Assembly: GCA_964652415.1 (NCBI GenBank)
Contig: CAZZDG010000003.1
Span: 1 to 35,746, forward strand
DNA length: 35,746 bases
Reading direction: 5' to 3'
Source: an uncultured Pseudomonadales bacterium
Lineage (GTDB): Bacteria; Patescibacteriota; Microgenomatia; UBA1400; PJMF01
Shown here: in pieces, positions 286 through 30,184 of the stretch
Numbering within the stretch: position 1 is the stretch's first letter
Layout of the letters: each line of letters opens with the position of its first letter
Notes under the pieces: model-generated
Seen by the model: only the letters and a program-made list of their open reading frames with translations
Database searches by the model: none
What the model was told of the DNA's origin: nothing
Made by a program: the position numbers and the translations under genes

Positions 286-1920
286 GTGAAAACAATAACA
301 TCACTGTTTAAAAAAATAACTATATTTGACAGAGTATTAGATACACAAACTCCTCTTTTTCTATTACTTGTTTTAGTAGTATTTCTCCGAATCCCTAATT
401 TATTCGAACCATATTGGTATGGTGACGAAGGCATTTACTTAACCATTGGTCAAAGTTTAAACAAAGGTGCAAAACTTTATACAGAAATAATCGATCATAA
501 AACCCCACTCATTTATTACTTGGCTAGAGTACAAACTCAAATGAACTTTAGGTTACTAAATATTGCTTGGATGCTTGTCACAACAACAGCTTTTTATTAC
601 TTCGCAAAAAAACTACTAAAATCTGTTAAACTTACTACATTGGCGGGGTTGATTTTTGTATTACTCACAACTTTGCCTTGGCTAGAAGGCAATATTCCCA
701 ATGGCGAACTTTTTGTTTTAGGATTTGTGTTGGTCGGTTTTTTAATTCTTTCTAGCACCACATACTTCAAAGGTTTTCTCAACCAAAAGCCACAATCAAA
801 AAAAAACCTGTTCCCACTTTTTTTATGTGGTTTTTTTGTAGGACTTGGAATTCTTACAAAAGTACCTTCAATTCTTGATTTAGGTGTCGCATTTAGTATT
901 GCTTACTTTAGTTGGATAAACCTTTTCACCTTCAATGATTGGAAACATAATTTTAAACAACTTTTTATACTTATTCCTCAGGTTATAAGCATACTCGTAG
1001 GTGCACTCACACCAATTCTCGTTTCTATTCTTTATTTTATAAGCATTGGTTCTGGAAAAGACTACCTAGACTTTGGACTACTCTATAATTTTAGATATGC
1101 GGGGAGTTGGGGCTTACCATTTACTCATCCATTTTTAGTTCAAAGTTTTACACTTCCAGGAAAAGCTTTCTATCTAATTGCGCTTTTGTTACTCATTACC
1201 TTACTAAGAAAATACCTCAAACCCGCATTACAATTTATTTTGTTTTGGTTTGCGGCTGATCTCTTTGCATCTCTACTTTCAAATAGACCATACCCTCACT
1301 ACTTCGTGCAACTAGTTCCTCCATTGGCTCTACTCATTGCCATTGGATGGCAGTATTTTATTGATTTATCTGGAGTTGAAAAATTACAATCACTACGCTT
1401 AAATTTACCGGAAACTTTGAAAAAAGTTATTCCACTTTCACTTTCTGCACTTGTCATTTTTCTCTTTGTTGCCGTTATGACCTTATTAGAGTTTAGGCCC
1501 TACCAAACTTTTTCATACTATAAAAATTGGTTTGCACTTGCTACCGGAAAAATCAGTAAAGAGGAGTATCGACAAACTTTCGACTCACTCATGCGAGATA
1601 ACTACAAAGCAGCACCAATAATTAAAGCAACAGGTTCTCCCGATCTTTTTATTTGGGGAACAAACCCAGTACTTTATGCACTAACAGAAACTCAACCAAC
1701 AGGAAGATTTACAGTTTCATTCCATATAAAAGATTTTGATGCATATGGTGAAACAATTCGTGATGTTGTAAAAAAACAACCAACATTTATAGTAGTAATG
1801 AAAAATGAAGATTATATTTTTGCTGAATTAAATAGTTACTTAGTTAACAACTATGTTCCAGATAACAGTAAATTTAATAATTTTGTGCTCTGGAAAAGAA
1901 TGAATGCAAACAATAATTAG
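286..1920 (+). CDS. GT-C fold, polyprenyl-phosphate-sugar dependent glycosyltransferase (ArnT/PMT_2-like)
   Basis: 544-aa ORF with a GTG start 21 nt after the previous stop. It is polytopic, with many hydrophobic segments. The first-loop motif EPYWYGDEGIYLTIGQSL carries acidic residues typical of GT-C enzymes. The C-terminal ~120 aa are soluble. Confidence 0.7.
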   Translation: MKTITSLFKKITIFDRVLDTQTPLFLLLVLVVFLRIPNLFEPYWYGDEGIYLTIGQSLNKGAKLYTEIIDHKTPLIYYLARVQTQMNFRLLNIAWMLVTTTAFYYFAKKLLKSVKLTTLAGLIFVLLTTLPWLEGNIPNGELFVLGFVLVGFLILSSTTYFKGFLNQKPQSKKNLFPLFLCGFFVGLGILTKVPSILDLGVAFSIAYFSWINLFTFNDWKHNFKQLFILIPQVISILVGALTPILVSILYFISIGSGKDYLDFGLLYNFRYAGSWGLPFTHPFLVQSFTLPGKAFYLIALLLLITLLRKYLKPALQFILFWFAADLFASLLSNRPYPHYFVQLVPPLALLIAIGWQYFIDLSGVEKLQSLRLNLPETLKKVIPLSLSALVIFLFVAVMTLLEFRPYQTFSYYKNWFALATGKISKEEYRQTFDSLMRDNYKAAPIIKATGSPDLFIWGTNPVLYALTETQPTGRFTVSFHIKDFDAYGETIRDVVKKQPTFIVVMKNEDYIFAELNSYLVNNYVPDNSKFNNFVLWKRMNANNN

Positions 1921-2272
1921 TACGCAAAAAGAACAAAATACAATTATTCCAAAAGAAATTCAAACTCCTATAACAGTTTCTTGGATTTTATTTTTTTTGT
2001 CTTTAGTTACTACAATTATTTTTTATTTTTTAGCACAACCAGAATTACCTCTCTTCTATACAGTTGCTACCAAACAAGATCAGCTCGCACCAAAATTACT
2101 TTTGTTCATTTTTCCAACAGTCTCTTTATTTATAAATGTTCTCCATTTTTTTATTTTTAGAATTCTACAAAAATACTCTGCAATCTTATTAAAACTTTTT
2201 GTGGGCACAACCATTGGATTACAAATATTGCTTGGTTTCGCACTATTTAGAATTATATTAATTACAACATAA
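1904..2272 (+). CDS. small integral membrane protein, unknown function (3 predicted TM segments)
   Basis: 122-aa ORF whose ATG overlaps the preceding gene by 17 nt and which ends 3 nt before the next gene. Hydrophobic segments: WILFFLSLVTTIIFYFLA, LLLFIFPTVSLFINVLHFFIF, GTTIGLQILLGFALFRIILI. Coding status is supported by operon packing only. Confidence 0.5.
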   Translation: MQTIISTQKEQNTIIPKEIQTPITVSWILFFLSLVTTIIFYFLAQPELPLFYTVATKQDQLAPKLLLFIFPTVSLFINVLHFFIFRILQKYSAILLKLFVGTTIGLQILLGFALFRIILITT

Positions 2273-2275
2273 ATT

Positions 2276-3328
2276 ATGCTAGCATTTATACTTACTTTTT
2301 TTGCAGCATCCCTCATCGCACCAGTTGTTATTACTTTTTATAAAAAAAATGGCTGGGTCGATGACCCTACAACCACAAAACATGCTAAAAAAACTCATGC
2401 GAAAAGTGTTCCTCGTGGCGGTGGACTCGTCATCTTTTTAAGTATAGTGTTAGGCGCACTCTTTTTCTTACATTTTGACAAACATTTAATTGCAATATTG
2501 TCAGGAGCATTAGTGCTCACAATAGTTGGAGTTCTTGATGATATATTTGATATTCACCCAATTGTAAGATTAGGCACCGGTTTACTAGCAACCTTAATTG
2601 TAGTTGGTTCTGGAATTGGAATTGCCTATGTAACTAATCCATTCGGACCTGGAGTTATTCATCTCAATCAACCGCAACTAGCATTTACTCTCCTTGGAGA
2701 ACAACACACTGTTTGGATTTTAGCAGATATTTTTGCAGTGCTTTTTATTATGTGGAATATGAATATTGTGAATTGGTCAAAAGGTGTCGATGGTCAGATG
2801 CCGGGGTTTGTAAGCATTGCTCTCATTTTTGTAGGACTACTTTCTACTAAGTTTATTGATGACCCCACAACATTTAATACTTTATTACTTTCATTTATTA
2901 CTGCAGGGTCGTTCGCAGGCCTGTTAATATGGAACTGGTACCCACAAAGAATTATGCCTGGATATGGTGCAGGCTCTCTAGCTGGATATTTTCTAGCCGT
3001 TCTAGCCATAATTTCTGGAGCGAAAGTTGCAACTGTCTTAATGGTATTGGGAATTCCAACTGCTGACGCAGTTTTTACAATCCTGAGAAGACTTCGAGCA
3101 GGTAAATCACCGTTATGGGGAGACAGAGGTCATTTGCACCACAAATTATTGGATGTTCTCGGTTGGGGAAGACGCAGAATAGCAGTTTTCTATTGGGGCA
3201 CAAGCTTTTTGTTGGGGTTGTCATCATTGTATTTGAATACCACTGGAAAATTGATTACAATGGGGATAGTATTTGGGTTAGTATTTAGCTTCCTTATATG
3301 GGCAAAAATACACACAACAAAAAAATAA
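2276..3328 (+). CDS. polyprenyl-phosphate N-acetylhexosamine-1-phosphate transferase (MraY/WecA/TagO superfamily, WecA/TagO-like)
   Basis: 350-aa polytopic protein. Motifs: VGVLDDIFDI (DDxxD), NMNIVNWSKGVDGQ (NxxNxxDGxDG-like) and GDRGHLHHKLLDVLGW, which is WecA/TagO-style rather than the MraY HHHFE motif. Confidence 0.8.
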   Translation: MLAFILTFFAASLIAPVVITFYKKNGWVDDPTTTKHAKKTHAKSVPRGGGLVIFLSIVLGALFFLHFDKHLIAILSGALVLTIVGVLDDIFDIHPIVRLGTGLLATLIVVGSGIGIAYVTNPFGPGVIHLNQPQLAFTLLGEQHTVWILADIFAVLFIMWNMNIVNWSKGVDGQMPGFVSIALIFVGLLSTKFIDDPTTFNTLLLSFITAGSFAGLLIWNWYPQRIMPGYGAGSLAGYFLAVLAIISGAKVATVLMVLGIPTADAVFTILRRLRAGKSPLWGDRGHLHHKLLDVLGWGRRRIAVFYWGTSFLLGLSSLYLNTTGKLITMGIVFGLVFSFLIWAKIHTTKK

Positions 3329-4326
3329 TGAAGTTCACTACATCTACACTCTACTACATCATCAAAACAGCGCGACCAAAGCAATGGATTAAAAACCTTG
3401 CCTTATACGCAGCACTCATTTTTTCTGGTTTTTTCCTGTACAAACCAGCAGATGCACCCTCATACTTTGCAACAGTCTCATATGCTTTCTTTGTATTTTG
3501 TATTCTCACTTCAAGTATTTACTTTATGAATGATATTGTTGATTATGAAGCAGATAAGCAACACCCTTTTAAGAAAAAACGACCAATTGCTTCAGGTCAT
3601 CTTTCAATAAAATATGCAAAATTCGTAGCCGTATTAGGTTTGATTGCCACTGCAGTTTTTTCTTATCAACTTTCCTTATTTTTTCAAATTTTAGCAATCT
3701 GCTACTTAGTTTTACAAATTTTTTACTCGAAGCTATTTAAGAACATCCCTATCCTCGATGTTGTATCAATTGCTACTGGATTCCTCATTAGAATTTATGC
3801 AGGAGCAGTTGTTGTTAATCTGCATATGAGCGTCTGGTTTTTACTTACTGTAATTTCAGCCTCTTTATTTTTGGCTGTAGGAAAACGACAAAGTGAGAGA
3901 ACCTTACTTCTCGGAAAAAGTGGAGCTACCAACGAAGACTTTGAGCTAGCAACCAAAGAAACAATCGGCGCAACTCGTAAAACACTCAAACGATATAGTC
4001 AAAGACTGCTTGATCAATACACTAGTATGTTTGCCAATGCAACTTGGCTAACCTATGCAATTTTTGCATTTCAAAACGAGATTGATGCGCCACGTGCTCG
4101 AGTCGCTTCATTATATACATTTCTGCCTAAAGCGTTACATACACAAAAATTACTCATGATAACCATCCCTCTTGTTATTTTTGGAGTTATGCGATATCTA
4201 CAACTGGTATATGAAAGCAACCAAGGAGAATCTCCAGAAAAAGTCTTACTAAAAGACAAACCGCTTCTACTCACTGTTTTTCTATTTGGAATACTCGTCA
4301 TGGTTATAACATACGTCTTAACATAA
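3328..4326 (+). CDS. UbiA-family prenyl-phosphate phosphoribosyltransferase (decaprenyl-phosphate 5-phosphoribosyltransferase-like, Rv3806c type)
   Basis: Motifs: RPKQWIKN near the N-terminus, NDIVDYEADKQHPFKKKRPIASG (first Asp-rich motif of this clade), and a C-terminal GESPEKVLLKDKPLL. The start is placed at ATG 3328, which overlaps the upstream TAA by 1 nt (TAATG). The track's ATG at 3298 would overlap the upstream gene by 31 nt. Confidence 0.75.
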   Translation: MKFTTSTLYYIIKTARPKQWIKNLALYAALIFSGFFLYKPADAPSYFATVSYAFFVFCILTSSIYFMNDIVDYEADKQHPFKKKRPIASGHLSIKYAKFVAVLGLIATAVFSYQLSLFFQILAICYLVLQIFYSKLFKNIPILDVVSIATGFLIRIYAGAVVVNLHMSVWFLLTVISASLFLAVGKRQSERTLLLGKSGATNEDFELATKETIGATRKTLKRYSQRLLDQYTSMFANATWLTYAIFAFQNEIDAPRARVASLYTFLPKALHTQKLLMITIPLVIFGVMRYLQLVYESNQGESPEKVLLKDKPLLLTVFLFGILVMVITYVLT

Positions 4327-4343
4327 ATAATGAAAAGAGTTCC

Positions 4344-5675
4344 GTGAAAAATTCAGTTTTTGTAAAATACTATCCTCAATTTTTGTTACTCATTCTAGCC
4401 TTTACCTTTTTGACAAGAATGTATCGACTTCATATTCCCGAAGTGTATGTTTTCGATGAGGTCTATCATGCAGTCACTGCCAAACTCATGGTAGATGGTG
4501 ATACCAGAGCCTATGAGTGGAATAATCCTCCTCCAGAACCAAACACTGCAGTTGACTGGCTACATCCTCCATATGCAAAACTAACACAGGCAGCAAGTAT
4601 GGCAATTTTTGGGAAGAATTCATTTGGCTGGCGATTTAGCTCAGTCATTTTTGGGTGTTTGGTTGTGTTGGTAACAGCAAAAATTGCTGAAGCATTATTT
4701 AAAAATAAACAACTTGCATTACTTTCCGCATTTTTAATTTCTCTAGATGGTTTACTCTTTACAATGTCACGAATTGCTATGAATGATGTTCACGTTACTT
4801 TTTTTATTTTACTCAGCATGTGGCAGTACATTTTGTATGTAAACTCAAAGCGAAAAATAAAAAAATACTTGTTTTTGAGTAGTATCGCAGCAGGGTTTGC
4901 AATTGGAACAAAGTGGTCTGGTGTTTTTGCCATTGGATTTATCGGAATCGTCGAAACTATATATACAGTAAAAACTTTCTTTGGAAAAAGTAGCCTTACT
5001 TTTTTGATTCATCAAATTGGAATATTGCTTGTAACGTGTTTACTCATACCAGCACTTCTATACTTAGGCTCATATTCACAAATGTTCTTAATGGGAAAAG
5101 ACTTTAATCACTTAGTAGAAATGCATAAGAATACATGGTGGTATCAAACTAACTTAACTGCAACCCATCCTGCTCAATCAAAACCAATTCAATGGTTCCT
5201 GAATACAAAACCAGTTTGGATTTCTGTTGATTATGCTTCAAGGGGGTTACGTGGCGATATCTATGCAATTGGAAATCCAGTATTATTTTGGCTGGGTGAT
5301 ATTGCACTTTTTGCCAGCTTAACAGTCTTAATCTTAAACAAACTCAAAAAAAAGAAACATCAACTCTCAAAAGATGCAACCACACTCGGATTGCTTTTGT
5401 TTGCTTATTCAATTGTTTGGATGCCTTGGCAGTTATCACCAAGAATTATGTTCTTTTATCACTATTTGCCTGCTGTTCCATTGCTGAGCATTACCCTTGC
5501 TTACTGGTTGATAAAAATTTGGAATACTCAAAAATTCAAGCTCTTGTCATTCTTGGCAATCGCACTTATTTTTGCATGCTTTGTAGTTTTGTACCCGCAT
5601 TTAACACTAATAAAATTGCCTATTGAAGTTAAAGAAAATTTCTATTTTTTCTTTGATTTTTGGAGACAAAAATAG
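4344..5675 (+). CDS. PMT-family (GT39) phospholipid-carrier-dependent glycosyltransferase
   Basis: 443-aa polytopic ORF with a GTG start. It carries the VFDEVYHAVTA motif (the DE motif of protein O-mannosyltransferase-like GT-C enzymes), then the loop AVDWLHPPYAKL and a C-terminal 4-TM region. Confidence 0.8.
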   Translation: MKNSVFVKYYPQFLLLILAFTFLTRMYRLHIPEVYVFDEVYHAVTAKLMVDGDTRAYEWNNPPPEPNTAVDWLHPPYAKLTQAASMAIFGKNSFGWRFSSVIFGCLVVLVTAKIAEALFKNKQLALLSAFLISLDGLLFTMSRIAMNDVHVTFFILLSMWQYILYVNSKRKIKKYLFLSSIAAGFAIGTKWSGVFAIGFIGIVETIYTVKTFFGKSSLTFLIHQIGILLVTCLLIPALLYLGSYSQMFLMGKDFNHLVEMHKNTWWYQTNLTATHPAQSKPIQWFLNTKPVWISVDYASRGLRGDIYAIGNPVLFWLGDIALFASLTVLILNKLKKKKHQLSKDATTLGLLLFAYSIVWMPWQLSPRIMFFYHYLPAVPLLSITLAYWLIKIWNTQKFKLLSFLAIALIFACFVVLYPHLTLIKLPIEVKENFYFFFDFWRQK

Positions 5676-18375: not shown

Positions 18376-18576
18376 TTAGGATTCTTCAGGAATTACGAGC
18401 CAAAGCAACACATAAGGAACAATTCCAGGTAATCCGCCCGGCATAAGTAATAATACCCAAAAAACACGCACTAAAGTAACATCAATATCAAAGTAGTTTG
18501 CAAGCCCTTGGGCAACTCCACCAATTTTTTTACCTTCTTTTGGTAGCAGAAGTCTCTTATTTTTTAAATTTTTCAT
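18376..18576 (-). CDS. PspC domain-containing membrane protein
   Basis: 66 aa. KKIGGVAQGLANYFDIDVTLVRVFWVLL is the PspC-domain signature, followed by a TM segment. Confidence 0.8.
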   Translation of the reverse strand: MKNLKNKRLLLPKEGKKIGGVAQGLANYFDIDVTLVRVFWVLLLMPGGLPGIVPYVLLWLVIPEES

Positions 18577-18610: not shown

Positions 18611-19630
18611 CTATAAATGTCGCATTTTTTTGCGTATAAACTCAAACGCAGCAGTAACTGTATATTTTGCTGACAAAGGGATATCATGAGCATGTAGATA
18701 CTCAACAGGTGTACCACCAAAACCTGTTTTGAACATTGTTACTCCCGCAAAACGGTGGTTAATTGCACCTTCTGGTGCAATACCCCAAAAATTATAATGA
18801 ACACAGCCACGTTTTTTTGCCTCTAAAATTGCTGCCCACTGGCATGCATAACTCCCTGGTAATTTACCATTTTCTTCTGTAGAAATTCCATAGTGATACA
18901 CCGCTTCACCATTATAGAATATAATAAATGCTGAAGCCAAAAGTTTACCCTCATAATACGAATGAAATAAAGAAACTTGGTTATCTTGCGCAAAAGCTTT
19001 AAATTGTTCATGTAAAAAATCATAAGAAAAGGGAACAAAACCGTGACGGTTGGCTAAAACAACTTGATTGTCATAAAATGCTTTTATCTCATCCGGGTTA
19101 CTAGTTTGTGTAACAACAATACCAAGCTCAATTGCCTTACGTATTGCAGAGCGATGGTTTTTTCTCATTTGAGCTAATAATAATTCTTCTGTTTGAGCAA
19201 GATTTAGTTGCAAAGTCAAATCTGCAGTTAAGTGCATTTGTGAAGCTCTTGCGCCTATGCGAGCCACTCTTTCGCTTAATTCACCACTCTCCAACTCTTG
19301 AGGTCTAAATCTAATAAAATCGACTTTTTGTTCTTGCGCAATACCTTTTATTTGCGCGAATGCATACTCAAATAACTCAGAATTCTGCCAATCCATAATC
19401 GGACCACCAGCAATTGTAATATAGTTTCCTCGTTTTGCCTTTTCAACAATCAATAACGCTAAACCTGCAACCTGTTGCTCATCTTGAAACAGAAGTCGTA
19501 CAACGGTTTTCCCTAAGCCTTCATGAAAAACACCCCAGTTCCACGACTGTAAAAAATTAGCTTCAGGAAATTGTGTAATGGCTTTTTCCCAAGTTTCTTT
19601 ACTCGCTGTTGTTACTGTAGTTAAGTTCAT
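18611..19630 (-). CDS. FemAB-family aminoacyl-tRNA-dependent peptidoglycan peptide-branch transferase (FemX/MurM-like)
   Basis: 339 aa. It has the N-terminal FLQSWNWGVFHEGLG motif, tandem GNAT-like halves, and C-terminal YNFWGIAP ... GVTMFKTGFGG. Confidence 0.85.
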   Translation of the reverse strand: MNLTTVTTASKETWEKAITQFPEANFLQSWNWGVFHEGLGKTVVRLLFQDEQQVAGLALLIVEKAKRGNYITIAGGPIMDWQNSELFEYAFAQIKGIAQEQKVDFIRFRPQELESGELSERVARIGARASQMHLTADLTLQLNLAQTEELLLAQMRKNHRSAIRKAIELGIVVTQTSNPDEIKAFYDNQVVLANRHGFVPFSYDFLHEQFKAFAQDNQVSLFHSYYEGKLLASAFIIFYNGEAVYHYGISTEENGKLPGSYACQWAAILEAKKRGCVHYNFWGIAPEGAINHRFAGVTMFKTGFGGTPVEYLHAHDIPLSAKYTVTAAFEFIRKKMRHL

Positions 19631-20871
19631 GATAGAGAATCCTCAAGGAGTATTTTACAAATCTTCTGTACTTTTTTAAGCGTCATCTCTCGATGTGTTG
19701 GTAAATTCAAAACTTGTTCAGCTAATCTCTCAGCATTTGGGCAACTTCCTTCAACATACTTCGTTGCATATCCAAAATTGCCGCAATCTACAGCACGGCG
19801 ATACCATCGATCAGAAACATATACTTTATTTTTCTTTAACACTCTAACTAATTTTTCAACTTGAGCACTGTTTTTACAACAAATACTTAACCGTAAATTA
19901 CTTGAACGCTGTAGCTCACTTTCTGTAATTAAAACTTGCAAGTCACTTCCTGCTAAAAGTCTCGAGTATTCTTTAGCCATGCTCAACCGGTGCTCTAACT
20001 GCCGTTCTAAGTTATGAAACTGGAATAAAGCTAAACCTGCATATGCTGGGTGCATCCATGTCATTTTGTCGGTCTTACTTTTAATAGGATTACTCAATAA
20101 ACCAAAAGCTTTGCTAATCATCAAAACAACTTTCCCCAAGCCTATATGATGAGTCTTGCGAATAAGAGAAGTTATATCAGGATATAGTAAATCCTCATAT
20201 ACAAACGAGAATGGAGTTTTACCAATCATGGTTTTTACGTAAAATAACCGTTCTGCTTGTTCAGGATTTAAATTCTGAAATAAAACCGATCCACCAGAAA
20301 CTGCATCAACTATTTTATCTCTTCCAAAAGAAAAAATGACAGCATCAGCTCTACTGCCGAGTATTAAACCATCCTCATCAACTCCACCAATACCCTGAGC
20401 AAGGTCCTCAATAAATAGTATCCCTTCTGCATGACACCATTTTTGTATGGCAACACTATCAGCAGAAATCCCTAAACTATGTTGTACTAGCACCGCTTTA
20501 GCCTTTGGATACTTTTTAAAAGTTGCTGAGATGCTCGCAACCGTAAGATTCGTACCGATATCACCTATATCTGTGTATACAGGTTGCATTTTTGCCCGTT
20601 TTATTCCCTCCTCAATTGCATAACAAGTAAATGCTTGTGTAATAATTTCACTCCCGGGCTCTAATAAAACACGGAGGCAGGCCTCAATAGCATCACGACC
20701 TTTGTATAAACTTAAAACAGTCGCTTCGTTTCTGTTGCTTGCAAATGTGTCAATTAAGTATTTTTCTAATGTTAACAAATTAGATTTTGGTGCATAAAAG
20801 ATACTTCTTAAACTCAGCGAGACAAACTGCAGTGAATAATTAGAACCTAAACTATTGAAAATTGATTGCAT
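19627..20871 (-). CDS. DegT/DnrJ/EryC1/StrS-family PLP-dependent enzyme (sugar aminotransferase-like)
   Basis: 414 aa. Motifs: GSEIITQAFTCYAIEEGI, FIEDLAQGIGG and the Schiff-base lysine context AVIFSFGRDKIVDAVSGG. Its stop overlaps the FemAB start (ATGA at 19627-19630). Confidence 0.78.
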   Translation of the reverse strand: MQSIFNSLGSNYSLQFVSLSLRSIFYAPKSNLLTLEKYLIDTFASNRNEATVLSLYKGRDAIEACLRVLLEPGSEIITQAFTCYAIEEGIKRAKMQPVYTDIGDIGTNLTVASISATFKKYPKAKAVLVQHSLGISADSVAIQKWCHAEGILFIEDLAQGIGGVDEDGLILGSRADAVIFSFGRDKIVDAVSGGSVLFQNLNPEQAERLFYVKTMIGKTPFSFVYEDLLYPDITSLIRKTHHIGLGKVVLMISKAFGLLSNPIKSKTDKMTWMHPAYAGLALFQFHNLERQLEHRLSMAKEYSRLLAGSDLQVLITESELQRSSNLRLSICCKNSAQVEKLVRVLKKNKVYVSDRWYRRAVDCGNFGYATKYVEGSCPNAERLAEQVLNLPTHREMTLKKVQKICKILLEDSLS

Positions 20872-20877
20872 AATTAC

Positions 20878-22374
20878 TTATTGTATATACTTTTTTGTCC
20901 ATGAAGGCATCCTGCCCTCAATAATAATAAGATCACTTGATTCTAAATTTGAGACAACTTCAGCCAGTTGTTCACTTTCAGTGAGCAACTCCGAATCAAA
21001 AACTTCAATAAATTCTTGCTTACCAGATTCGCCGAGAAATACTACTTGGTCAAACACTTTTTGTGCTTGTCTTGCTAATTTCAAATGAATTTCTTTTGAA
21101 TCATTCCCCAAATCAACAATACCTGGTGTAATCAAAACTTTCTTTTGAGCACTCATAGATTTTGCCAATGAAATAATCGCACTAAATCCTTTTGGGTTAC
21201 TTGTATCACCGTCATCAACAACTCGTACCCCACTGGCTAAAGCATATATGAGAACAAACTTTTCATTAGGAATAAATGACTCGATTGCAGCAATAATTTC
21301 TGGTTTTGTCATCTTAAAACGCAAGGCTGTAACAATCACTAAGTGAATAGCTTCAATATACTGCTCGCCAATAATCTGTGTCTTAACTGGGGTATCATCC
21401 CAGCTAAATTGCAATTTGCCTTCAGAATTTAAACAAACTTTTTCTATTTTTACTTTTTCATAGTATTTATTCACACCAACCAGCTGAGCCCTATTCTGGT
21501 CACTTCCTGCTTCATAAATTCGCCGTGTTTGAGGATCATACAGATTGCAAATCACGACTGCCTTTTTTGGCAAACTGGCAACAAGCTCTGCCTTTGCTGA
21601 AATAATTTCTTCCAAACTACCAAACAACCCCACATGTTGTTTTGTCAAACCAGTAATCAAAGCTAGTTGAGGCTGAATCCACTTTGCAAGTTCCCCGATT
21701 TCACCTTTTTTGTATGCAGCATACTCAATAATTGCAATTTCTTCACCCTTATACCCTCTGACAACACTATTCGCCACAGAATATTTAGTATTATACGATT
21801 TTGGTGTCATGAAAACTGAATGTTTTTTTTCTAATACATGAGCTAACAACATTTTTGTTGATGTCTTACCATAGCTTCCGGTTATACCAATTACTGTAGG
21901 TTTGTGTGCTTGAATAAGCTTTTGTGCTTGCAATAAACGTTTGTAAGTCTGGATATACGCAAGTACTGTAGTTGGCAGAGCACTCATTAATGCAAAAAGT
22001 GGAATTGTAATGAGATACACCAGCATAACTGTAAGAATCATAAGGAACGTGTACCAAAGTGGGTATGGATACCAATTCAATAAATATGTAACTCCTAAAG
22101 AGATTCCCACTTTGAAATAAATAATAGTCAAAATAACAAAAATCAATGCTAATAATAGGGAACGAGGTGTCAATTTTGGACGCTTTAATCCTGTTCTAGT
22201 AAAATCTTGCTTTTGAGGAAAAAATCTCAACAATTCTTGCACACCCTCTGCCGAAAGTAAGAATAAGAATATCCTATCAAATCTATACTCTTTTTGTTGC
22301 AAAATACCAAACCATCGTAATGACCTGATAAAAAATGAGGTTGCAAAAAGGAGTACTGCTAGTGTTGTCTTCAT
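20878..22374 (-). CDS. Mur ligase family protein (MurF-like central and C-terminal domains) with a polytopic N-terminal membrane domain
   Basis: 498 aa. Residues 1-150 contain several hydrophobic helices (LAVLLFATSFFI, LLLALIFVILTIIYF, WYTFLMILTVMLVYLITIPLFALM). These are followed by VIGITGSYGKTSTK (the Mur-ligase P-loop), AIIEYAA, ALITGLTKQH and VVDDGDTSNP. Confidence 0.85.
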   Translation of the reverse strand: MKTTLAVLLFATSFFIRSLRWFGILQQKEYRFDRIFLFLLSAEGVQELLRFFPQKQDFTRTGLKRPKLTPRSLLLALIFVILTIIYFKVGISLGVTYLLNWYPYPLWYTFLMILTVMLVYLITIPLFALMSALPTTVLAYIQTYKRLLQAQKLIQAHKPTVIGITGSYGKTSTKMLLAHVLEKKHSVFMTPKSYNTKYSVANSVVRGYKGEEIAIIEYAAYKKGEIGELAKWIQPQLALITGLTKQHVGLFGSLEEIISAKAELVASLPKKAVVICNLYDPQTRRIYEAGSDQNRAQLVGVNKYYEKVKIEKVCLNSEGKLQFSWDDTPVKTQIIGEQYIEAIHLVIVTALRFKMTKPEIIAAIESFIPNEKFVLIYALASGVRVVDDGDTSNPKGFSAIISLAKSMSAQKKVLITPGIVDLGNDSKEIHLKLARQAQKVFDQVVFLGESGKQEFIEVFDSELLTESEQLAEVVSNLESSDLIIIEGRMPSWTKKYIQ

Positions 22375-23090
22375 TTCAAAAATTCTCCAATAACATTTGC
22401 AGTTTCAGCTGGATGGGTGAATTGGGGAGAATGCCTCGCGCCCTCAACTACAGAAAGCTGACTATTTGGTATGAGATCTAACATTTTTTGCGCATGTTTA
22501 AAAGGAGTTACTCTGTCTTCTGCACCCCAAACTATCTTTGTTGGGCATTGAATTTTTGGTAAATCTTCTAAAATCTCATCATCAAGTACTTTTGACATTG
22601 TTCTCCTCAATAATGGTGGCGCATTTTTATAATCACCTTCTCGAGCAAGTTTGTATAATAAATCTCTTAGAATCGTGGCCTGAAATAGTATTTTGCCAAT
22701 TTTTGCTAAAAATAAAAATACTGCTCTTTTAACAACTTGTTTGAAAGCCATATCTCGAATTCCTGCACTATCTAAAAGTACTAATTTTGAAACGAGCTGA
22801 GGATTTTGCGCTGTAAATCTTGCCGCAATTTGCCCTCCAAAAGAATGACCCAACAACAGTACCTTGCCACTTTCAGTTGATTTTTTAATTTCTTTGCCTA
22901 CCCACGCAACAAAATCATCTAAATCCCAAACTTCATTGAGTGGTGCCGAAAGCCCTGGAATTTTTAAAAAAATCACACTCAACTCATCATGGTTTTTCTT
23001 GAGTTTTTCAATAAAAGGTTGCCACACCTCTTCATTCAAGTTACCACTTCGAACTGCCCACCCATGCAAAATATATACCGTATTTTTCAT
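22371..23090 (-). CDS. alpha/beta-fold hydrolase
   Basis: 239 aa. It has the LLLGHSFGG nucleophile elbow, VWGAEDRV (Asp) and GARHSP (His). Its stop overlaps the Mur-ligase start by 4 nt. Confidence 0.85.
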   Translation of the reverse strand: MKNTVYILHGWAVRSGNLNEEVWQPFIEKLKKNHDELSVIFLKIPGLSAPLNEVWDLDDFVAWVGKEIKKSTESGKVLLLGHSFGGQIAARFTAQNPQLVSKLVLLDSAGIRDMAFKQVVKRAVFLFLAKIGKILFQATILRDLLYKLAREGDYKNAPPLLRRTMSKVLDDEILEDLPKIQCPTKIVWGAEDRVTPFKHAQKMLDLIPNSQLSVVEGARHSPQFTHPAETANVIGEFLK

Positions 23091-23149
23091 ATTTGATTCA
23101 CTCTAGTATCTCAAGAGAAACCCAAAGATTCAAGACTTGATCCTAATAG

Positions 23150-23177
23150 TTGCAACTTCACTATATACCCTTATACT
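23150..23177 (+). promoter_or_regulatory. candidate sigma-70 type promoter for the cyclophilin/DUF4012/prfB run
   Basis: TTGCAA (23150-23155), a 16-nt spacer, then TATACT (23172-23177). The -10 element ends 3 nt before ATG 23181 and 9 nt before ATG 23187. Confidence 0.45.
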
Positions 23178-23180
23178 AAT

Positions 23181-23858
23181 ATGATTATGAAACCAAATTA
23201 CAAATACCTTACATTTATTGCTGTTATAATTACCTCTGCAAGCATTTTATCTGGATGCACTGATCCTGCAAAAAAAAGTGATCAAAAGATTAATTTAACC
23301 GACTCAAAAATCACAACTCAAGAAACAAATAATACAAATACAGAAAGGCCAAACACAATGCCAGAAATAACGTATAAAGCACTAGAAGATTTCAAAAAAA
23401 TTGAGGCAAAACAAGCAGTTTTTGAGACTACAAAAGGCACCTTAGTCATGGACTTGTATCGCGAACAAGCTCCACTCACTACTGCAAACTTCCTTGATCT
23501 TATTGACAGCGGTTTCTATGATGGCATTATTTTTCACCGAGTTATTCCAGGCTTCATGGCTCAAGTTGGTGATCCATTTACCAAAGACCCAACAAAAACT
23601 GAAGCACAATGGGGAATGGGAGGACCAACCTACAGAATAATGGACGAGTTTCATCCTGAGTTAAAACATGATACTCCAGGCATACTATCTATGGCAAACG
23701 CAGGTCCAAACACTGGAGGTAGCCAAATTTTCATTACCTACGAACCAACACCACATCTAGACGGCAAACATGCTGTTTTTGGAAAACTAGTTGAGGGTAT
23801 GGAAGTGTTAGAGTCTATCACCAAAGGCGACAAAATCATTAAAGCCTCATATAGATAA
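23181..23858 (+). CDS. cyclophilin-type peptidyl-prolyl cis-trans isomerase, lipoprotein
   Basis: 225 aa. It has a signal peptide with the lipobox ILSGC. The catalytic core includes [32 protein letters not shown] and [14 protein letters not shown]. The true start may be ATG 23187 (MKPNYKY...). Confidence 0.9.
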
Positions 23859-23861
23859 CAT

Positions 23862-25379
23862 ATGAAAAAATCCACTATCAGTATTGTAGGTCTGATTTTA
23901 GTCAGCATACTACTGATTGGTGCGACTATTTTTCAAAATATTACTACATTGAGTACTTTTTCTAATGCGTTTGTTTCACTTTCTAGTGCAAACTCAAACT
24001 CAGATAAAATTATTTTTGATCTTTCAATTGTATCTCAGTTAACAACTGTAATTGATTCTGTGGCAAAAGCAAAACTCACTACACTCTTCTTACCCAAAGA
24101 TCAAAGAGAACTTCTTGGGAATATAAAAAAAATCACTCCAGAAATACAAACTGTGTTGCATGAACTATCCGAGGGAGAACAACGCTGGATTTTACTATTC
24201 CAAAATAGCAATGAAATTCGAGCGACAGGCGGTTTTATGGGATCATATGCACTTATTGAATTAAATCAAGGTAAAATAACTCAAATAAATATTGAAGATA
24301 TATATGATGCGGATGGTCAATTTAGCGGATACTTTGATGCGCCAAGTGGCGTCTCACATTATCTAAGTGGAGGGAAAGGACTTCGTCTTCCTGACGCAAA
24401 TTGGAACCTCGATACTAAAAAAAGTGCTGAACAAATTTTACCATTTTTTGCCCTTGGAAATAAACAAAATATTAAAGGAATCATTTTTGTTAACTTAGAA
24501 TTTGCAAGAAAATTACTCTCCTTCCTTGGCCCACTTGAATTAACTGACTACAACACAATTATCACAGAAGAAAATATTGACGAAGTACTCAGATCTAGAA
24601 GAGATGATTTCTTTCCCGGAAGTATGCAAAAAAAACACATGCTTTCTTTATTGCTCACTCAAGTAAGAATCCAAATACTCAAACTTGAACCAAAACAGTT
24701 TATGTCATTACTCACTCTAACTGCAGAAGAAATTCAAAAACATAATTTACAGTTTTATTCTAACAATCCTGTGATCGATACTATTTTCTCGGGGCACAAT
24801 ATGAGACAAACAATTAACATTCCAGAAAGTTCTGAGTACATCTACCTTGTTGAATCTAACGTAGGAATAAATAAAGCAAACAAAGGAATTACCAGAGAAG
24901 TTACTATCAATAAAAAAGATGCAAATCGAACTGTCATTATTTCCTTTACAAACAAAAATAAAAAGCCAACAATTTCAAAACTAACCGCACTTACTGAACT
25001 TGAATCACCACAAACAGTTAATGCCACTGCGACAGAGTCGAACACAATTACACACCTAGCGTACATTAATTACCAAAGAATTCTCGTTCCAAAAAACTGG
25101 GAACTAACCACTGTAGAATACAAGAACAACAAGATTGCCGAAATAGACAAAGAAGTCATTACATACAATGATACGGAATTTAACCAAATAGGTTTTCTTG
25201 TTGTCTTACATGAAGAAGAACAAGCAAACCTTATAATATCGTTCACTACTCCAGAAGATTTTGACCAAATTTTCATCCAAAAACAACCTGGTTTACCTAC
25301 AACAAAGTATATTCTAGAGTATAATCAGAAGCAGTCTATTACGGAGATAGAAAAAAACTCAGTGGTTAATTACCCATAA
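23862..25379 (+). CDS. DUF4012 domain-containing extracytoplasmic protein with an N-terminal TM anchor
   Basis: 505 aa. N-terminal anchor ISIVGLILVSILLIGATIF. The motif LLFQNSNEIRATGGFMGSYALIEL matches the DUF4012 signature (recall). The start lies 3 nt after the PPIase stop. Confidence 0.72.
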   Translation: MKKSTISIVGLILVSILLIGATIFQNITTLSTFSNAFVSLSSANSNSDKIIFDLSIVSQLTTVIDSVAKAKLTTLFLPKDQRELLGNIKKITPEIQTVLHELSEGEQRWILLFQNSNEIRATGGFMGSYALIELNQGKITQINIEDIYDADGQFSGYFDAPSGVSHYLSGGKGLRLPDANWNLDTKKSAEQILPFFALGNKQNIKGIIFVNLEFARKLLSFLGPLELTDYNTIITEENIDEVLRSRRDDFFPGSMQKKHMLSLLLTQVRIQILKLEPKQFMSLLTLTAEEIQKHNLQFYSNNPVIDTIFSGHNMRQTINIPESSEYIYLVESNVGINKANKGITREVTINKKDANRTVIISFTNKNKKPTISKLTALTELESPQTVNATATESNTITHLAYINYQRILVPKNWELTTVEYKNNKIAEIDKEVITYNDTEFNQIGFLVVLHEEEQANLIISFTTPEDFDQIFIQKQPGLPTTKYILEYNQKQSITEIEKNSVVNYP

Positions 25380-27110: not shown

Positions 27111-28049
27111 ATGATCGTATTTTCTTCTGTCAGCAAACAGTTTTTACCAGATACCTATGCACTCAAGGACATTTCATTCGAAATTAGTCCTGGCGAGTTG
27201 GTTTTGCTAACTGGTCCTTCAGGAGCAGGCAAATCAACTTTGATGAAATTACTCACAAAAGAATACGATCCAACCTCCGGCAAAATTCTTTTTCATGGCA
27301 CCAACCTTAAAGATATTCGTGACTCCAAAATCCATGAACACAGACGTAAAATAGGTGTTGTTTTTCAAGAAGATAACCTAATACCAGAACTCAATGTTTG
27401 GGAAAATATTGCTTTGCCACTCTCAATTATTGGGAAAGACGAAGCCGAAATTGAAGAACGAATCACTGACTTACTAGAACTTGTATCACTCACTGATAAA
27501 GCTCTGCACTTTCCTAAACAACTATCAGGAGGAGAAGCTCAAAGAATTGGTATTGCCCGGGCTCTCTCTACTGCTCCATCAATCATTTTTGCTGATGAAC
27601 CAACAGGAAACCTCGACCAAGAAAATTCAATACAAATAGCAAAATTACTCACCAAAATTAATGAGCTTGGCACCACCGTTTTATTTTCAACTCACGATCA
27701 TGATGTCATTGGCCAACTCAGCGCTCACCGCCATATAGTACTCACTGATGGAGCCATAATAAGTGATACTGCAGATAAAACTAAAGATAAAAAAGTAGCA
27801 ACACAACCTAGTATTGATACCAAACCTCAGTCAAATAAAGAAGAAAAGAAGCAAGGATTTTTTTCAAGCCTATTTAATAAAACAAACGCAAGCGAAAAGG
27901 TACGTGTGTCAGATTTAAAGGATGAAGATAGACAACTCGAACTAGAATTAGAACCAAAAGAAAAAATAGATACCGAGATTGAAAACGTCAAAGAAGATAA
28001 AAAAGAAGACTCAAGCAAAAAAAAGCAAAGTAAACAAAAAAAGAAATAA
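27111..28049 (+). CDS. ftsE: cell-division ABC ATPase FtsE with a ~90-aa Lys/Glu-rich C-terminal extension
   Basis: 312 aa. Motifs: GPSGAGKST (Walker A), LSGGEAQRIGIARAL (signature), IIFADEPTGNLD (Walker B) and STHD (H-loop). The canonical domain ends near residue 218. Confidence 0.9.
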   Translation: MIVFSSVSKQFLPDTYALKDISFEISPGELVLLTGPSGAGKSTLMKLLTKEYDPTSGKILFHGTNLKDIRDSKIHEHRRKIGVVFQEDNLIPELNVWENIALPLSIIGKDEAEIEERITDLLELVSLTDKALHFPKQLSGGEAQRIGIARALSTAPSIIFADEPTGNLDQENSIQIAKLLTKINELGTTVLFSTHDHDVIGQLSAHRHIVLTDGAIISDTADKTKDKKVATQPSIDTKPQSNKEEKKQGFFSSLFNKTNASEKVRVSDLKDEDRQLELELEPKEKIDTEIENVKEDKKEDSSKKKQSKQKKK

Positions 28050-28918
28050 TGAACTCATTTACTACTGCCCTCACTACAATTAGAAGATCTCCCTACCAAG
28101 CTCTTACCTCTATTCTCATGGTAGCAACCACTTTTTTTGTTGCCTATGTTTTTTCTATTTTTATGATTGGCTCCAAAATTGTTTTAGAACATTTCGAAAC
28201 ACAACCACAGATTCTCGCTTTTTTCGTACTCGAAACCAAACCAGAAATTATAGAATCAGTCGCAAAAACAATGGAAGAAAGGCCATATGTTTCTTCTGTA
28301 GAAATTATTTCACAAGAAGAAGCTCTCAAGTTATACCAAAAAGATAATAGTGATGACCCATTACTTTTAGAATTAGTCACTGCAGATATCTTACCAGCAA
28401 GTGTTGAGGTTTCTGGAATCGACATTGATTCATTAGCCTTGATTAAAAAAGACTTAGAAAGCTTTAGTCAAATTGAAGATATCGAATATCAAGAAGATGT
28501 TATCTCAACCTTATCTAGTTGGATCACAACTATCGAACTTGTTGGAGTAGGCACTACGGTTGTATTGGGCACCATATCATTTTTGATTATCATGGTAATT
28601 ATTGCTATGAAAGCAAATGTGCAAAAGAAAAAAATTGCAATAATGCGGATGCTAGGTGCTACCAAGTGGTATATTAAGGCACCATATATGTACGAAGGCA
28701 TTATTTATGGACTAATCGGAGCACTCCTGGGTTGGCTTGCTATGTTTGCAACACTTCTCTATCTAACTCCTTCAATAAATAGTATGCTTGGAGATATTTC
28801 GCTCCTACCTGCCCCAATAGAATTTTATGTACTACATGCGGCAGGTGGTGGTGTGTTAGGAATGTTTCTTGGCGCTTTTGCAAGCATATTTGCTATCCAA
28901 CGATTCATTAAAAATTAA
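28049..28918 (+). CDS. ftsX: cell-division permease-like protein FtsX
   Basis: 289 aa. The ATG overlaps the ftsE TAA (TAATG). It has TM1, an extracytoplasmic domain (VSSVEIISQEEALKLYQKD), then three C-terminal TM segments of the FtsX/MacB type. Confidence 0.85.
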   Translation: MNSFTTALTTIRRSPYQALTSILMVATTFFVAYVFSIFMIGSKIVLEHFETQPQILAFFVLETKPEIIESVAKTMEERPYVSSVEIISQEEALKLYQKDNSDDPLLLELVTADILPASVEVSGIDIDSLALIKKDLESFSQIEDIEYQEDVISTLSSWITTIELVGVGTTVVLGTISFLIIMVIIAMKANVQKKKIAIMRMLGATKWYIKAPYMYEGIIYGLIGALLGWLAMFATLLYLTPSINSMLGDISLLPAPIEFYVLHAAGGGVLGMFLGAFASIFAIQRFIKN

Positions 28919-28924
28919 GTTACA

Positions 28925-30184
28925 ATGAGTAAAATCATGCAAAAAATTAGAGTAGCACTAATAGCTTTATTTTTGTTCTTACTTGTATCTGTAGAAAACA
29001 GTTTTGCAAGAAATTGTGAGGCCGATTTTTCATGTAATGAAGCTGATGATACATATTCAACTTGCTTAGAAAATAAAAAAGCATGTTTGGAAGAAGTTTT
29101 AGCAGAAACAAGGGCCAAAAAAAACACTTTAGAAAATGCTATTAGCATCATAAATGGTAACGTGAATATCCAACAGGTAAAAATTTCACAAACAAAGAAT
29201 GAAATAGCAATTCTTGAGAGAGAAATCACAGATCTAGACAACAGAATTTCAGGATTAAGTATTTCTCTCGATAGGCTCTCTACTTTATTAGTTGAAAGGA
29301 TTCGGAGCCAATATAAACGTGAACAAGTAAATCCACTTTCAGTTTTTGCTTCTACAAGATCGTTGGCAGAATTTATGTCACAGTATCGATATCTGCGCTT
29401 AGCCGGCAAGCAAACTGCTCAAGCTATGCAAAAGGCAGAAAACCAAAGAACTGTATATGATGAACAAAAAGAACTGAAAGAAATAAAACAAGAAGAAATA
29501 GAAACGAAAAAAAATAAACTACAACAAATTCAAAATGAACTCGTTGGACAACGCAAAGAGCAACAAAACTTACTCTCAGTAACAAAAAATGATGAGCAAA
29601 AATTTCAACAACTCCTAAAAGAAGCACAAGAACAAATTAATTCTATTCGTAGATACGCAGTAAGTAAGGGTGGTTCTTCTATTCTTTCAGGAAAAACAAG
29701 TTGCGATGACTGGGGCTGTTACTATAATCAAAGAGATAGCGCTTGGGGTAACCAACTTATCGGTAGAAGTAACGAAAATATGGCTGAGGTTGGCTGTTTA
29801 ATCACAGCAGTAGCAATGATAACCTCACATTATGGAAAAACACTCACGCCTGCTCAAATTGCGGGAAGTTCAAACCCATTCTTCTACAATACAGCTGACA
29901 TGCTTTGGACTTGGTCTGGTCAAGTAAACGGAGTAACAGCGACACGGTCTAGGGTTGGCTATAATGTCGCAGCTCTGGATGCAGAACTTGCTACAGGCCG
30001 TCCCGCTATAGTAAGAATCACAGCAGGAAATAGTGTAGGAACTCACTTTGTTGTTATTACCAAAAAAGAAGACGGCAAATATATCATGAAAGATCCATAT
30101 GAATCTGATGGAAACAATATACCTTTCACTGATAAACACTCATTATCTCAAATAACTGCAGTCGATAGAGTTACTGTTCAATAA
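28925..30184 (+). CDS. secreted coiled-coil protein with a C-terminal papain-like cysteine peptidase domain (Peptidase_C39_2-like); putative FtsEX-controlled cell-wall hydrolase
   Basis: 419 aa. It has a signal/anchor segment (ALIALFLFLLVSV). Residues ~55-245 are heptad-rich (EIAILEREITDLDNRISGL; KELKEIKQEEIETKKNKLQQIQNEL). The C-terminal domain reads YYNQRDSAWGNQLIG ... AEVGCLITAVAMITSHYG ... GTHFVVITKKEDGKYIMKDP, giving candidate Cys291/His374/Asp390. The start lies 6 nt after the ftsX stop. Confidence 0.75.
   Translation: MSKIMQKIRVALIALFLFLLVSVENSFARNCEADFSCNEADDTYSTCLENKKACLEEVLAETRAKKNTLENAISIINGNVNIQQVKISQTKNEIAILEREITDLDNRISGLSISLDRLSTLLVERIRSQYKREQVNPLSVFASTRSLAEFMSQYRYLRLAGKQTAQAMQKAENQRTVYDEQKELKEIKQEEIETKKNKLQQIQNELVGQRKEQQNLLSVTKNDEQKFQQLLKEAQEQINSIRRYAVSKGGSSILSGKTSCDDWGCYYNQRDSAWGNQLIGRSNENMAEVGCLITAVAMITSHYGKTLTPAQIAGSSNPFFYNTADMLWTWSGQVNGVTATRSRVGYNVAALDAELATGRPAIVRITAGNSVGTHFVVITKKEDGKYIMKDPYESDGNNIPFTDKHSLSQITAVDRVTVQ

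Follow-up and report, generated by a model that had tools for sequence, protein, structure and literature searches.

Our analysis of a 35,746-nucleotide (nt) stretch of DNA (contig CAZZDG010000003.1 of assembly GCA_964652415.1; here called the window, at its full length) revealed a block of four minus-strand genes, which encode an alpha/beta-hydrolase, a Mur ligase, a DegT-fold pyridoxal phosphate (PLP) enzyme and a protein of the FemAB family. This block probably constitutes a module for completing and branching the peptidoglycan stem peptide, in which the ligase would act as a MurF-type enzyme embedded in the membrane. The evidence lies in the MurF-like core of the ligase, in the conserved membrane domain at its N terminus and in the position of the block in relatives, where it is found within mur and division and cell wall (dcw) clusters. 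The four genes, with the lengths of their open reading frames (ORFs), are as follows.

22371..23090, minus strand: alpha/beta-hydrolase gene (239 amino acids [aa])
20878..22374, minus strand: membrane ligase gene (498 aa)
19627..20871, minus strand: DegT-fold PLP enzyme gene (414 aa)
18611..19630, minus strand: FemX-type (FemAB family) gene (339 aa)

The original prediction, made from the letters of the window alone, had described a translationally coupled set with characteristic motifs, and the ORFs and Pfam matches bore out all its coordinates. ATGA stop/start overlaps join the hydrolase to the ligase gene (22371-22374) and the DegT-like to the FemAB gene (19627-19630), and 6 nt (20872-20877) separate the ligase from the DegT-like gene. 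The motifs are GHSFGG at aa 81 of the hydrolase, GITGSYGKTST at aa 163 of the ligase, SFGRDK at aa 181 of the DegT-like protein and FLQSWNWG at aa 26 of the FemAB protein. Pfam assigned Abhydrolase_6/1 to the hydrolase (E value of 1e-17), Mur_ligase_M (2e-29) with a weak Mur_ligase_C match to the ligase, DegT_DnrJ_EryC1 to the 414-aa protein (3e-36; 125.7 bits) and FemAB to the whole length of the 339-aa protein (2e-38; 132.5 bits against a cutoff of 24).

The membrane-embedded ligase

The ligase is divided into the following parts.

20878..21903, minus strand: MurF-type core, consisting of the ATP-binding central domain and the C-terminal domain (aa 158-498 plus stop)
21904..22374, minus strand: membrane domain (aa 1-157; from the AlphaFold2 [AF2] model and hydrophobic segments)
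22162..22299, minus strand: basic juxtamembrane loop (aa 26-71; QQKEYR.DR...G.KRP..T.R)

Compared with the NCBIfam models, the ligase scored highest against murF (TIGR01143; 180.8 bits), followed by murD (64), murC (51), murE (43), folC (27) and cyanophycin synthetase (24), and the murF match spanned profile positions 65-403 of 418. All of its sequence matches in the PDB were MurF proteins, the best being Thermotoga MurF (3zl8). An AF2 model built on 68 homologues was of high confidence (predicted local distance difference test [pLDDT], 92.8; predicted template-modeling score [pTM], 0.86), and a Foldseek search with it returned MurF at ranks 1-10, ahead of MurE, MurC, cyanophycin synthetase and MurT. 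The alignment of about 370 columns covered the central and C-terminal domains only; over this part, the fold resembles that of the MurF structures 4qf5, 3zl8, 4cvm and 1gg4 with an E value of 4e-22 and a TM score of ~0.6-0.7. The landmarks of the core are the P-loop GITGSYGKTST, E217, H247 and K261, and, in the C-terminal domain, F373, H430 and DDGDTSNP. Across 84 homologues, conservation is 100% for K170, E217 and H247 and 92% for K261, and these positions align with MurF, so that the P-loop, the Mg-binding Glu, the His and the position of the carbamylated Lys of MurD/E/F (K261) are all retained, although the P-loop differs from that of MurF in reading GSYGK. The placement against MurC-F, MurT, CapB, FolC and cyanophycin synthetase, which the original prediction had proposed, thus gave MurF as the closest relative by both hidden Markov model (HMM) and Foldseek. 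An identity as MurT was ruled out, as the MurT models gave 15.6-18.7 bits against a cutoff of 800 and MurF structures ranked above MurT. CapB/PgsB, cyanophycin synthetase and FolC were also ruled out by low HMM bits and by Foldseek ranks below those of MurF, MurE and MurC.

The relatives of the ligase were collected in a one-genome-per-species scan, which yielded at least 591 of them; the best 80 loci were kept and, together with five loci retrieved by exact protein, formed a set of 85 loci, whose neighboring genes were clustered and then classified by NCBIfam or Pfam. The likeness to MurF is confined to the core. The first ~150 residues are hydrophobic and gave no match to any known domain; residues 1-157 match the N-terminal domain of MurF neither by HMM nor by structure, and Foldseek found no structural match for them in the PDB, as only the Mur core was aligned. 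The AF2 model places helices at aa 2-27, 70-101, 106-122 and 124-157, and a small helical insert at aa 32-58 bears the basic motif QQKEYR.DR...G.KRP..T.R, whose defined columns are invariant in 68 sequences. Three to six hydrophobic segments precede the P-loop in every one of the 85 homologues. The domain is homologous across phyla, with Q26 conserved in 98%, Y30 in 100%, R34 in 82% and T69 in 92% of sequences. When its profile was searched against 1.84 billion cluster representatives, 149 proteins matched, essentially all of them ligases of 470-550 aa with the domain at the extreme N terminus. The domain is therefore confined to these ligases, which points to a dedicated family domain, more than a generic anchor. 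Between aa 26 and 71, the loop carries on average 11.8 Lys and Arg versus 5.1 Asp and Glu residues and is thus predicted, by the positive-inside rule, to face the cytoplasm. Since both the loop and the linker into the catalytic domain would be cytoplasmic, an even number of membrane passages is expected for the uncharged segment at aa 72-143. Judging from the model, a conserved membrane domain of three to four helices takes the place of the UDP-binding N-terminal domain of MurF. The membrane anchor noted in the original prediction was hence real but understated.

JGI and NCBI annotations already label members of the family MurF. What appears to be new is the membrane-embedded form, its juxtamembrane motif and the pairing with a hydrolase; automatic annotation as plain MurF has hidden the structural difference in the databases. 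In the literature that could be searched, we found no description of a membrane MurF, the juxtamembrane motif, a MurF-linked hydrolase or an operon of this composition, in agreement with the original prediction, which was aware of no such characterized operon.

Genomic context and partner enzymes

The order hydrolase-ligase-DegT-FemAB recurs in 19 related loci, down to ligase identities of ~25-30%, which is far beyond chance. Across loci, the median gap is -0.5 nt from the ligase to the DegT-like gene and -8 nt from the DegT-like to the FemAB gene. The conservation of the block that the original prediction had left to be checked is therefore strong. Of the two halves of a condition that it had named as telling against itself, an unconserved linkage proved false, and a ligase that is the only MurF looks likely in relatives.

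Two arrangements were found downstream of the ligase. In 42 loci, none of them from the Candidate Phyla Radiation (CPR), the ligase adjoins Ddl (directly downstream in 34), and in 28 Patescibacteria loci it adjoins a DegT-like and/or a FemAB gene; no locus combines Ddl with DegT or FemAB. In the five Poribacteria loci (e.g., L018), the gene stands in a cluster of, in this order, RsmH-like, FtsL-like, FtsI, MurE, hydrolase, ligase, Ddl, MraY, MurD, FtsW, MurG and MurC genes; these clusters contain no other MurF-type gene, and the ligase holds the murF slot. Chloroflexota, Clostridia, Bacteroidales and others show hydrolase, ligase and Ddl in this order, often preceded by MurA, and the murF slot and/or the adjacency to ddl was also found in L012, L019, L026 and L028. 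Among Patescibacteria, a Gottesmanbacteria cluster (L017) reads FtsI-MurE-PgeF-like-MurC-MurB-MurA-GlmU-hydrolase-ligase-DegT-three unrelated genes-FemAB-DagK-like kinase-MraY-FtsW-MurG and contains no second MurF. Similarly, L040 reads MurE-MurC-MurA-GlmU-GlmS-hydrolase-ligase-DegT-FemAB, and a Saccharibacteria locus (L015) reads MurD-FtsW-MurG-LysRS-x-SerRS-hydrolase-ligase-DegT-FemAB-FtsQ. Collectively, this context supports the suggestion of the original prediction that the four genes serve to assemble or modify a peptidoglycan precursor. Its further suggestion, a pathway separate from the cytoplasmic MurC-F line with the ligase as an extra enzyme, does not agree with the MurF matches by HMM and Foldseek or with the murF slot in relatives.

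In the ten loci of the window lineage (L001-L010), the block lies outside the dcw cluster and is flanked by a cyclophilin/DUF4012/PrfB/FtsEX group on one side and an SBP5/SecG/RNase Y/RecA group on the other; this synteny is kept down to 38% ligase identity. A search seeded with the Bacteroidales form yielded ~8000 close relatives of 526-538 aa, and proteins of this type are named MurF by NCBI in Muribaculaceae (Duncaniella, Paramuribaculum) and in some Clostridia. The records of seven loci (L007-L010, L014, L021, L036) are titled 'uncultured Pseudomonadales' or 'Gammaproteobacteria'; their gene content and synteny are of the Patescibacteria type, and these labels of metagenome-assembled genomes look wrong, which makes them unfit for deriving the phyletic distribution.

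Several features of other mur genes in these clusters were also recorded. The MurE proteins of L017 (2264-3481) and L040 (2108-3334) have 405-408 aa and are matched by the murE model from position ~70 on, so that they seem to be without the N-terminal UDP-binding domain. The L017 gene starts 7 nt after FtsI, and there is no separate ORF for an N-terminal domain. Between MurE and MurC, L017 encodes a Cu-oxidase_4 protein (3484-4203) that is PgeF-like, i.e., of the peptidoglycan editing factor family.

A hydrolase orthologue adjoins the ligase in 73 of the 85 loci, in 66 of them directly upstream, and at this junction the genes overlap in 21 of 66 cases (median gap of 7.5 nt). The loci that bear it are labeled Patescibacteria, Chloroflexota, Poribacteria, Clostridia, Bacteroidales, cyanobacteria, Omnitrophota, Verrucomicrobia, Nitrospirae and Bdellovibrionota (more than eight phyla in all). 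The catalytic triad consists of Ser83 (in GHSFGG), Asp192 and His220, and an HGW motif at residues 9-11 would form the oxyanion site; among the 73 orthologues, S83 is conserved in 98%, D192 and H220 in 100% and H9-G10-W11 in at least 93%, and D153-Y154 is conserved as well. The closest solved structures are generic carboxylesterases and lipases, and the homology search for a specific function returned generic esterases and lipases only. As far as can be judged from sequence, the hydrolase is a cytoplasmic, esterase-like and conserved partner of the membrane ligase.

The DegT-like gene stands where other phyla have Ddl. Invariant residues of the enzyme are the Schiff-base lysine K186 and D156, which binds the pyridine nitrogen, and the subfamily motifs FNSLGSNY, YKGRDAI and DRWYR do not vary either. 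Its AF2 model (pLDDT of 95.8) has the sugar-aminotransferase fold of ArnB, Spr1654, WbpE and PseC (TM score of ~0.7), although at 17-20% identity, and the structure search for a specific function gave generic sugar aminotransferases only. YKGRDAI aligns where AHBA synthase has NGTHALE, i.e., YKGRD stands in place of the usual NGT motif, which we take to be the cofactor-phosphate motif of the DegT family. Further differences from ArnB, WbpE and PseC are the subfamily's own motifs FNSLGSNY and DRWYR, the ddl position of the gene and the fact that no dehydratase or oxidoreductase gene that could supply a keto-sugar is present within the operon. Of the 120 best homologues, all entries that bear a name are from Patescibacteria or seemingly mislabeled, and many of these homologues share contigs with ligase matches; the enzyme thus appears to represent a Patescibacteria-specific subfamily.

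FemAB is the most conserved protein of the block, with 51-78% identity across L001-L010. Its best NCBIfam match is the Weissella-type FemX family (68 bits, well below the cutoff of 500, in keeping with a low identity), followed by the PEP-CTERM-associated FemAB family (49 bits). The PDB matches comprise an aminoacyl-tRNA-dependent peptide synthase, Staphylococcus aureus FemX/FemA and Weissella viridescens FemX, with which residues 11-292 align. Within the FemX/FemA/FemB and MurM group, the protein resembles W. viridescens FemX in being a short form (~335 aa) that has no coiled-coil insert. Its MFKTGFGG segment, which aligns with RFKLGFGG of the aminoacyl-tRNA-dependent peptide synthase 9wqy, is a candidate for the C-terminal catalytic Lys motif (F-K-x-G-F; Lys305 in FemX). 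Genes for lysyl- and seryl-tRNA synthetases (LysRS and SerRS) lie directly upstream of the block in ~14 loci of the Parcubacteria/Saccharibacteria type (e.g., L015:5867-9168 and L049:4743-6218). This adjacency would fit the use of aminoacyl-tRNA, as in FemX, and may bear on its supply to the enzyme. L044, L049 and L066 encode, besides the downstream copy, a second FemAB paralogue immediately upstream of the ligase, which suggests multi-residue bridges in some lineages.

Proposed mechanism and competing explanations

In the mechanism that we propose, the ligase would retain the ATP-dependent chemistry of Mur enzymes, forming an acyl-phosphate on the stem tripeptide and then adding the C-terminal amino-acid unit. 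The soluble UDP-binding domain would have been lost and replaced by the membrane domain with its basic cytoplasmic loop, so that the enzyme would work at the inner face of the membrane, beside MraY, either on UDP-MurNAc-tripeptide received there or on lipid-linked MurNAc-tripeptide. The hydrolase is probably the obligate partner of the membrane form of MurF and could serve as a subunit in a complex with the ligase or as an editing esterase. The FemX-type enzyme would transfer a branch amino acid from aminoacyl-tRNA onto the stem peptide, and the DegT-fold enzyme would perform a transamination tied to the same precursor. Both the membrane-face chemistry and the tRNA-dependent branching of the original prediction are plausible. 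CPR genomes have been reported to encode essentially complete peptidoglycan pathways (PMC7143001).

Several observations weigh against this assignment. In the window, the block is not part of a dcw cluster and the contig covers only 35.7 kb; by analogy with the relatives, the ligase might be the sole MurF of the source genome, but a canonical MurF may be encoded elsewhere in it. The data point to no substrate for the hydrolase or the DegT-like enzyme, and the hydrolase is similar in sequence to esterases, not to peptidases. No Ddl-like ORF occurs anywhere in any of the 28 DegT/FemAB loci. The score of the window ligase lies below the curated TIGR01143 cutoff of 288.6 bits; all membrane ligases, those of the window subfamily and the others, fall below it and are matched from profile position ~60-74 on, but the window subfamily scores lowest (168-181 bits), compared with 234-274 bits for most other membrane forms. 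The C-terminal domain differs as well. Ddl-linked ligases conserve R373-L374 (R373 in 100%), presumably the pan-Mur 'GR' motif, as well as N430, N487-D488-L489-P490-D491 and DDxYNxNP. The window subfamily is without R373, N430, N487-D488 and DDxYNxNP; it has F373 for the pan-Mur Arg, G487-R488, and DDGxxSNP where MurF has DDxYNANP. H430 replaces N430 in both Patescibacteria ligase groups, and other CPR members retain DDxYNxNP. The window subfamily thus appears to be the most divergent of the membrane ligases, with an altered amino-acid-binding domain, and, since residues of the Ddl-linked members are missing from this domain, the window ligase may not add D-Ala-D-Ala. The substitutions could reflect a different incoming substrate or plain divergence.

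The same substitutions also bear on an alternative that leaves the ligase in the peptidoglycan pathway but lets the Patescibacteria enzyme add a unit not made by Ddl, so that the stem peptide would end differently. Here, the downstream gene would supply the amine substrate, namely, Ddl elsewhere and the DegT-like enzyme, possibly with FemAB, in Patescibacteria. The strict either/or of 42 Ddl versus 28 DegT/FemAB loci, the missing Ddl-like ORF in the latter, the tight coupling of DegT to the ligase and the systematic exchanges at positions 373, 430 and 487-488 speak for it. Nevertheless, we consider it unlikely, as FtsI-type transpeptidases, whose donor has to be D-Ala-D-Ala-like, are encoded in the same loci, Ddl could be encoded elsewhere in CPR genomes, the residue differences could be due to phylogenetic distance alone, other CPR members keep DDxYNxNP, and the DegT fold fits nucleotide-sugar aminotransferases, not amino-acid enzymes. 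A bolder version, which we regard as distinctly improbable, would have the membrane MurF and its esterase-like partner act on lipid-linked MurNAc-tripeptide in Patescibacteria, Chloroflexota, Poribacteria, Muribaculaceae and others, with the MraY and MurF steps taken in reverse order or joined physically; the unit that is added in Patescibacteria would be made with the help of the DegT-like and FemX-like enzymes instead of being Ddl-made D-Ala-D-Ala. If the late Mur steps had more widely shifted away from UDP recognition, the N-truncated MurE of CPR clusters would fit in.

The model of the original prediction, in which an extra MurT-like paralogue would modify lipid II at the membrane alongside a normal cytoplasmic MurC-F line, is in our estimate very unlikely. 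Like MurT with its partner GatD, the ligase has a Mur fold without a UDP-binding domain, a small co-encoded hydrolytic partner and a predicted place near a membrane-proximal precursor, and a canonical MurF in the source genome would fit such a role. However, the ligase shows no sequence affinity to MurT (16-19 bits versus a cutoff of 800) and MurF structures outrank MurT; MurT is soluble, whereas the window ligase is an integral membrane protein, and its partner, instead of a glutaminase, is an alpha/beta-hydrolase with a Ser-Asp-His triad. Moreover, the gene is linked to Ddl in 42 loci and is the sole MurF-type gene, beside MurC, MurD and MurE, in the mur/dcw clusters of relatives. An even smaller chance, in fact an extremely low one, is left to the possibility that the block decorates a polymer other than peptidoglycan (an exopolysaccharide, an S-layer glycan or a teichoic-acid-like polymer), as PEP-CTERM-associated FemAB proteins with DegT sugar aminotransferases would. 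The second NCBIfam match of FemAB, the usual service of DegT enzymes in glycan pathways and PMT/GT4/UbiA glycosylation genes at 286-5675 of the window could be read in this way; however, the ligase is MurF-like, the consistent neighbors in relatives are mur and fts genes, not polysaccharide genes, and the glycosylation genes lie 13 kb off and are unlinked to the block in relatives.

Textbooks present MurF, an antibiotic target, as a soluble enzyme of the cytoplasm. If our assignment as a membrane-embedded MurF is correct, a widespread integral-membrane MurF would alter the picture of the last cytoplasmic precursor step in the groups in which the membrane form occurs, i.e., Patescibacteria, Chloroflexota, Poribacteria, and gut Muribaculaceae and Clostridia. 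It poses the testable question of whether the substrate is UDP linked or lipid linked, and it flags the hydrolase and the DegT-like PLP enzyme as conserved enzymes that are putatively tied to cell wall synthesis. The results also suggest that the stem peptide may be finished differently in Patescibacteria, organisms that obtain most building blocks by scavenging.

Surroundings of the block

Two further features border the block.

18376..18576, minus strand: PspC-domain gene (66-aa ORF), neighbor of the block
23091..23180, no strand: intergenic region that separates the divergent hydrolase and cyclophilin genes, candidate operon promoter region

As the only sizeable gap 5' of the four coupled genes, the region at 23091..23180 likely harbors the operon promoter; promoter-like matches were found on both strands there, not above the expectation from shuffled sequence. 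The PspC gene (Pfam PspC; E value of 3e-21) follows FemAB after 34 nt. It adjoins the block only in the closest relatives, L001 and L002 (92% identical there), and is absent from L003-L010, and a promoter-like TAGACC-16-TATAAT element lies inside the 34-nt gap. It was for these reasons rejected as a member of the module and probably stands outside the unit.

The source of the window is a low-GC Patescibacterium; the DNA encodes RecA, RNase Y, SecG, PrfB, FtsEX and PMT-type glycosyltransferases, and the nearest homologues of its proteins are named Patescibacteria or Pacebacteria. The 35.7 kb contain no further mur gene, tRNA or Rfam feature, and a tRNA dedicated to FemAB is thus missing from the window. 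The block is flanked by the cyclophilin gene on one side and by an SBP_bac_5 gene on the other. The genes for the lipoprotein-like cyclophilin and a DUF4012 protein (23181-25379) are divergent from the block, lie 5' of it and are kept in L001-L009. At 286-5675, two PMT-type (dolichyl-phosphate-mannose-like) glycosyltransferases, a GT4 (WecA/MraY-family) phosphosugar transferase and a UbiA prenyltransferase are encoded, which may form a lipid-linked glycosylation module unrelated to the four genes. Finally, after FtsE and FtsX, the window encodes a 419-aa protein whose C-terminal part is a Peptidase_C39-like domain (27111-30184 for the whole group), and a faint Peptidase_M23 match was found at the corresponding position of L005; beside FtsEX, the 419-aa protein may be an FtsEX-controlled cell wall hydrolase of these organisms.

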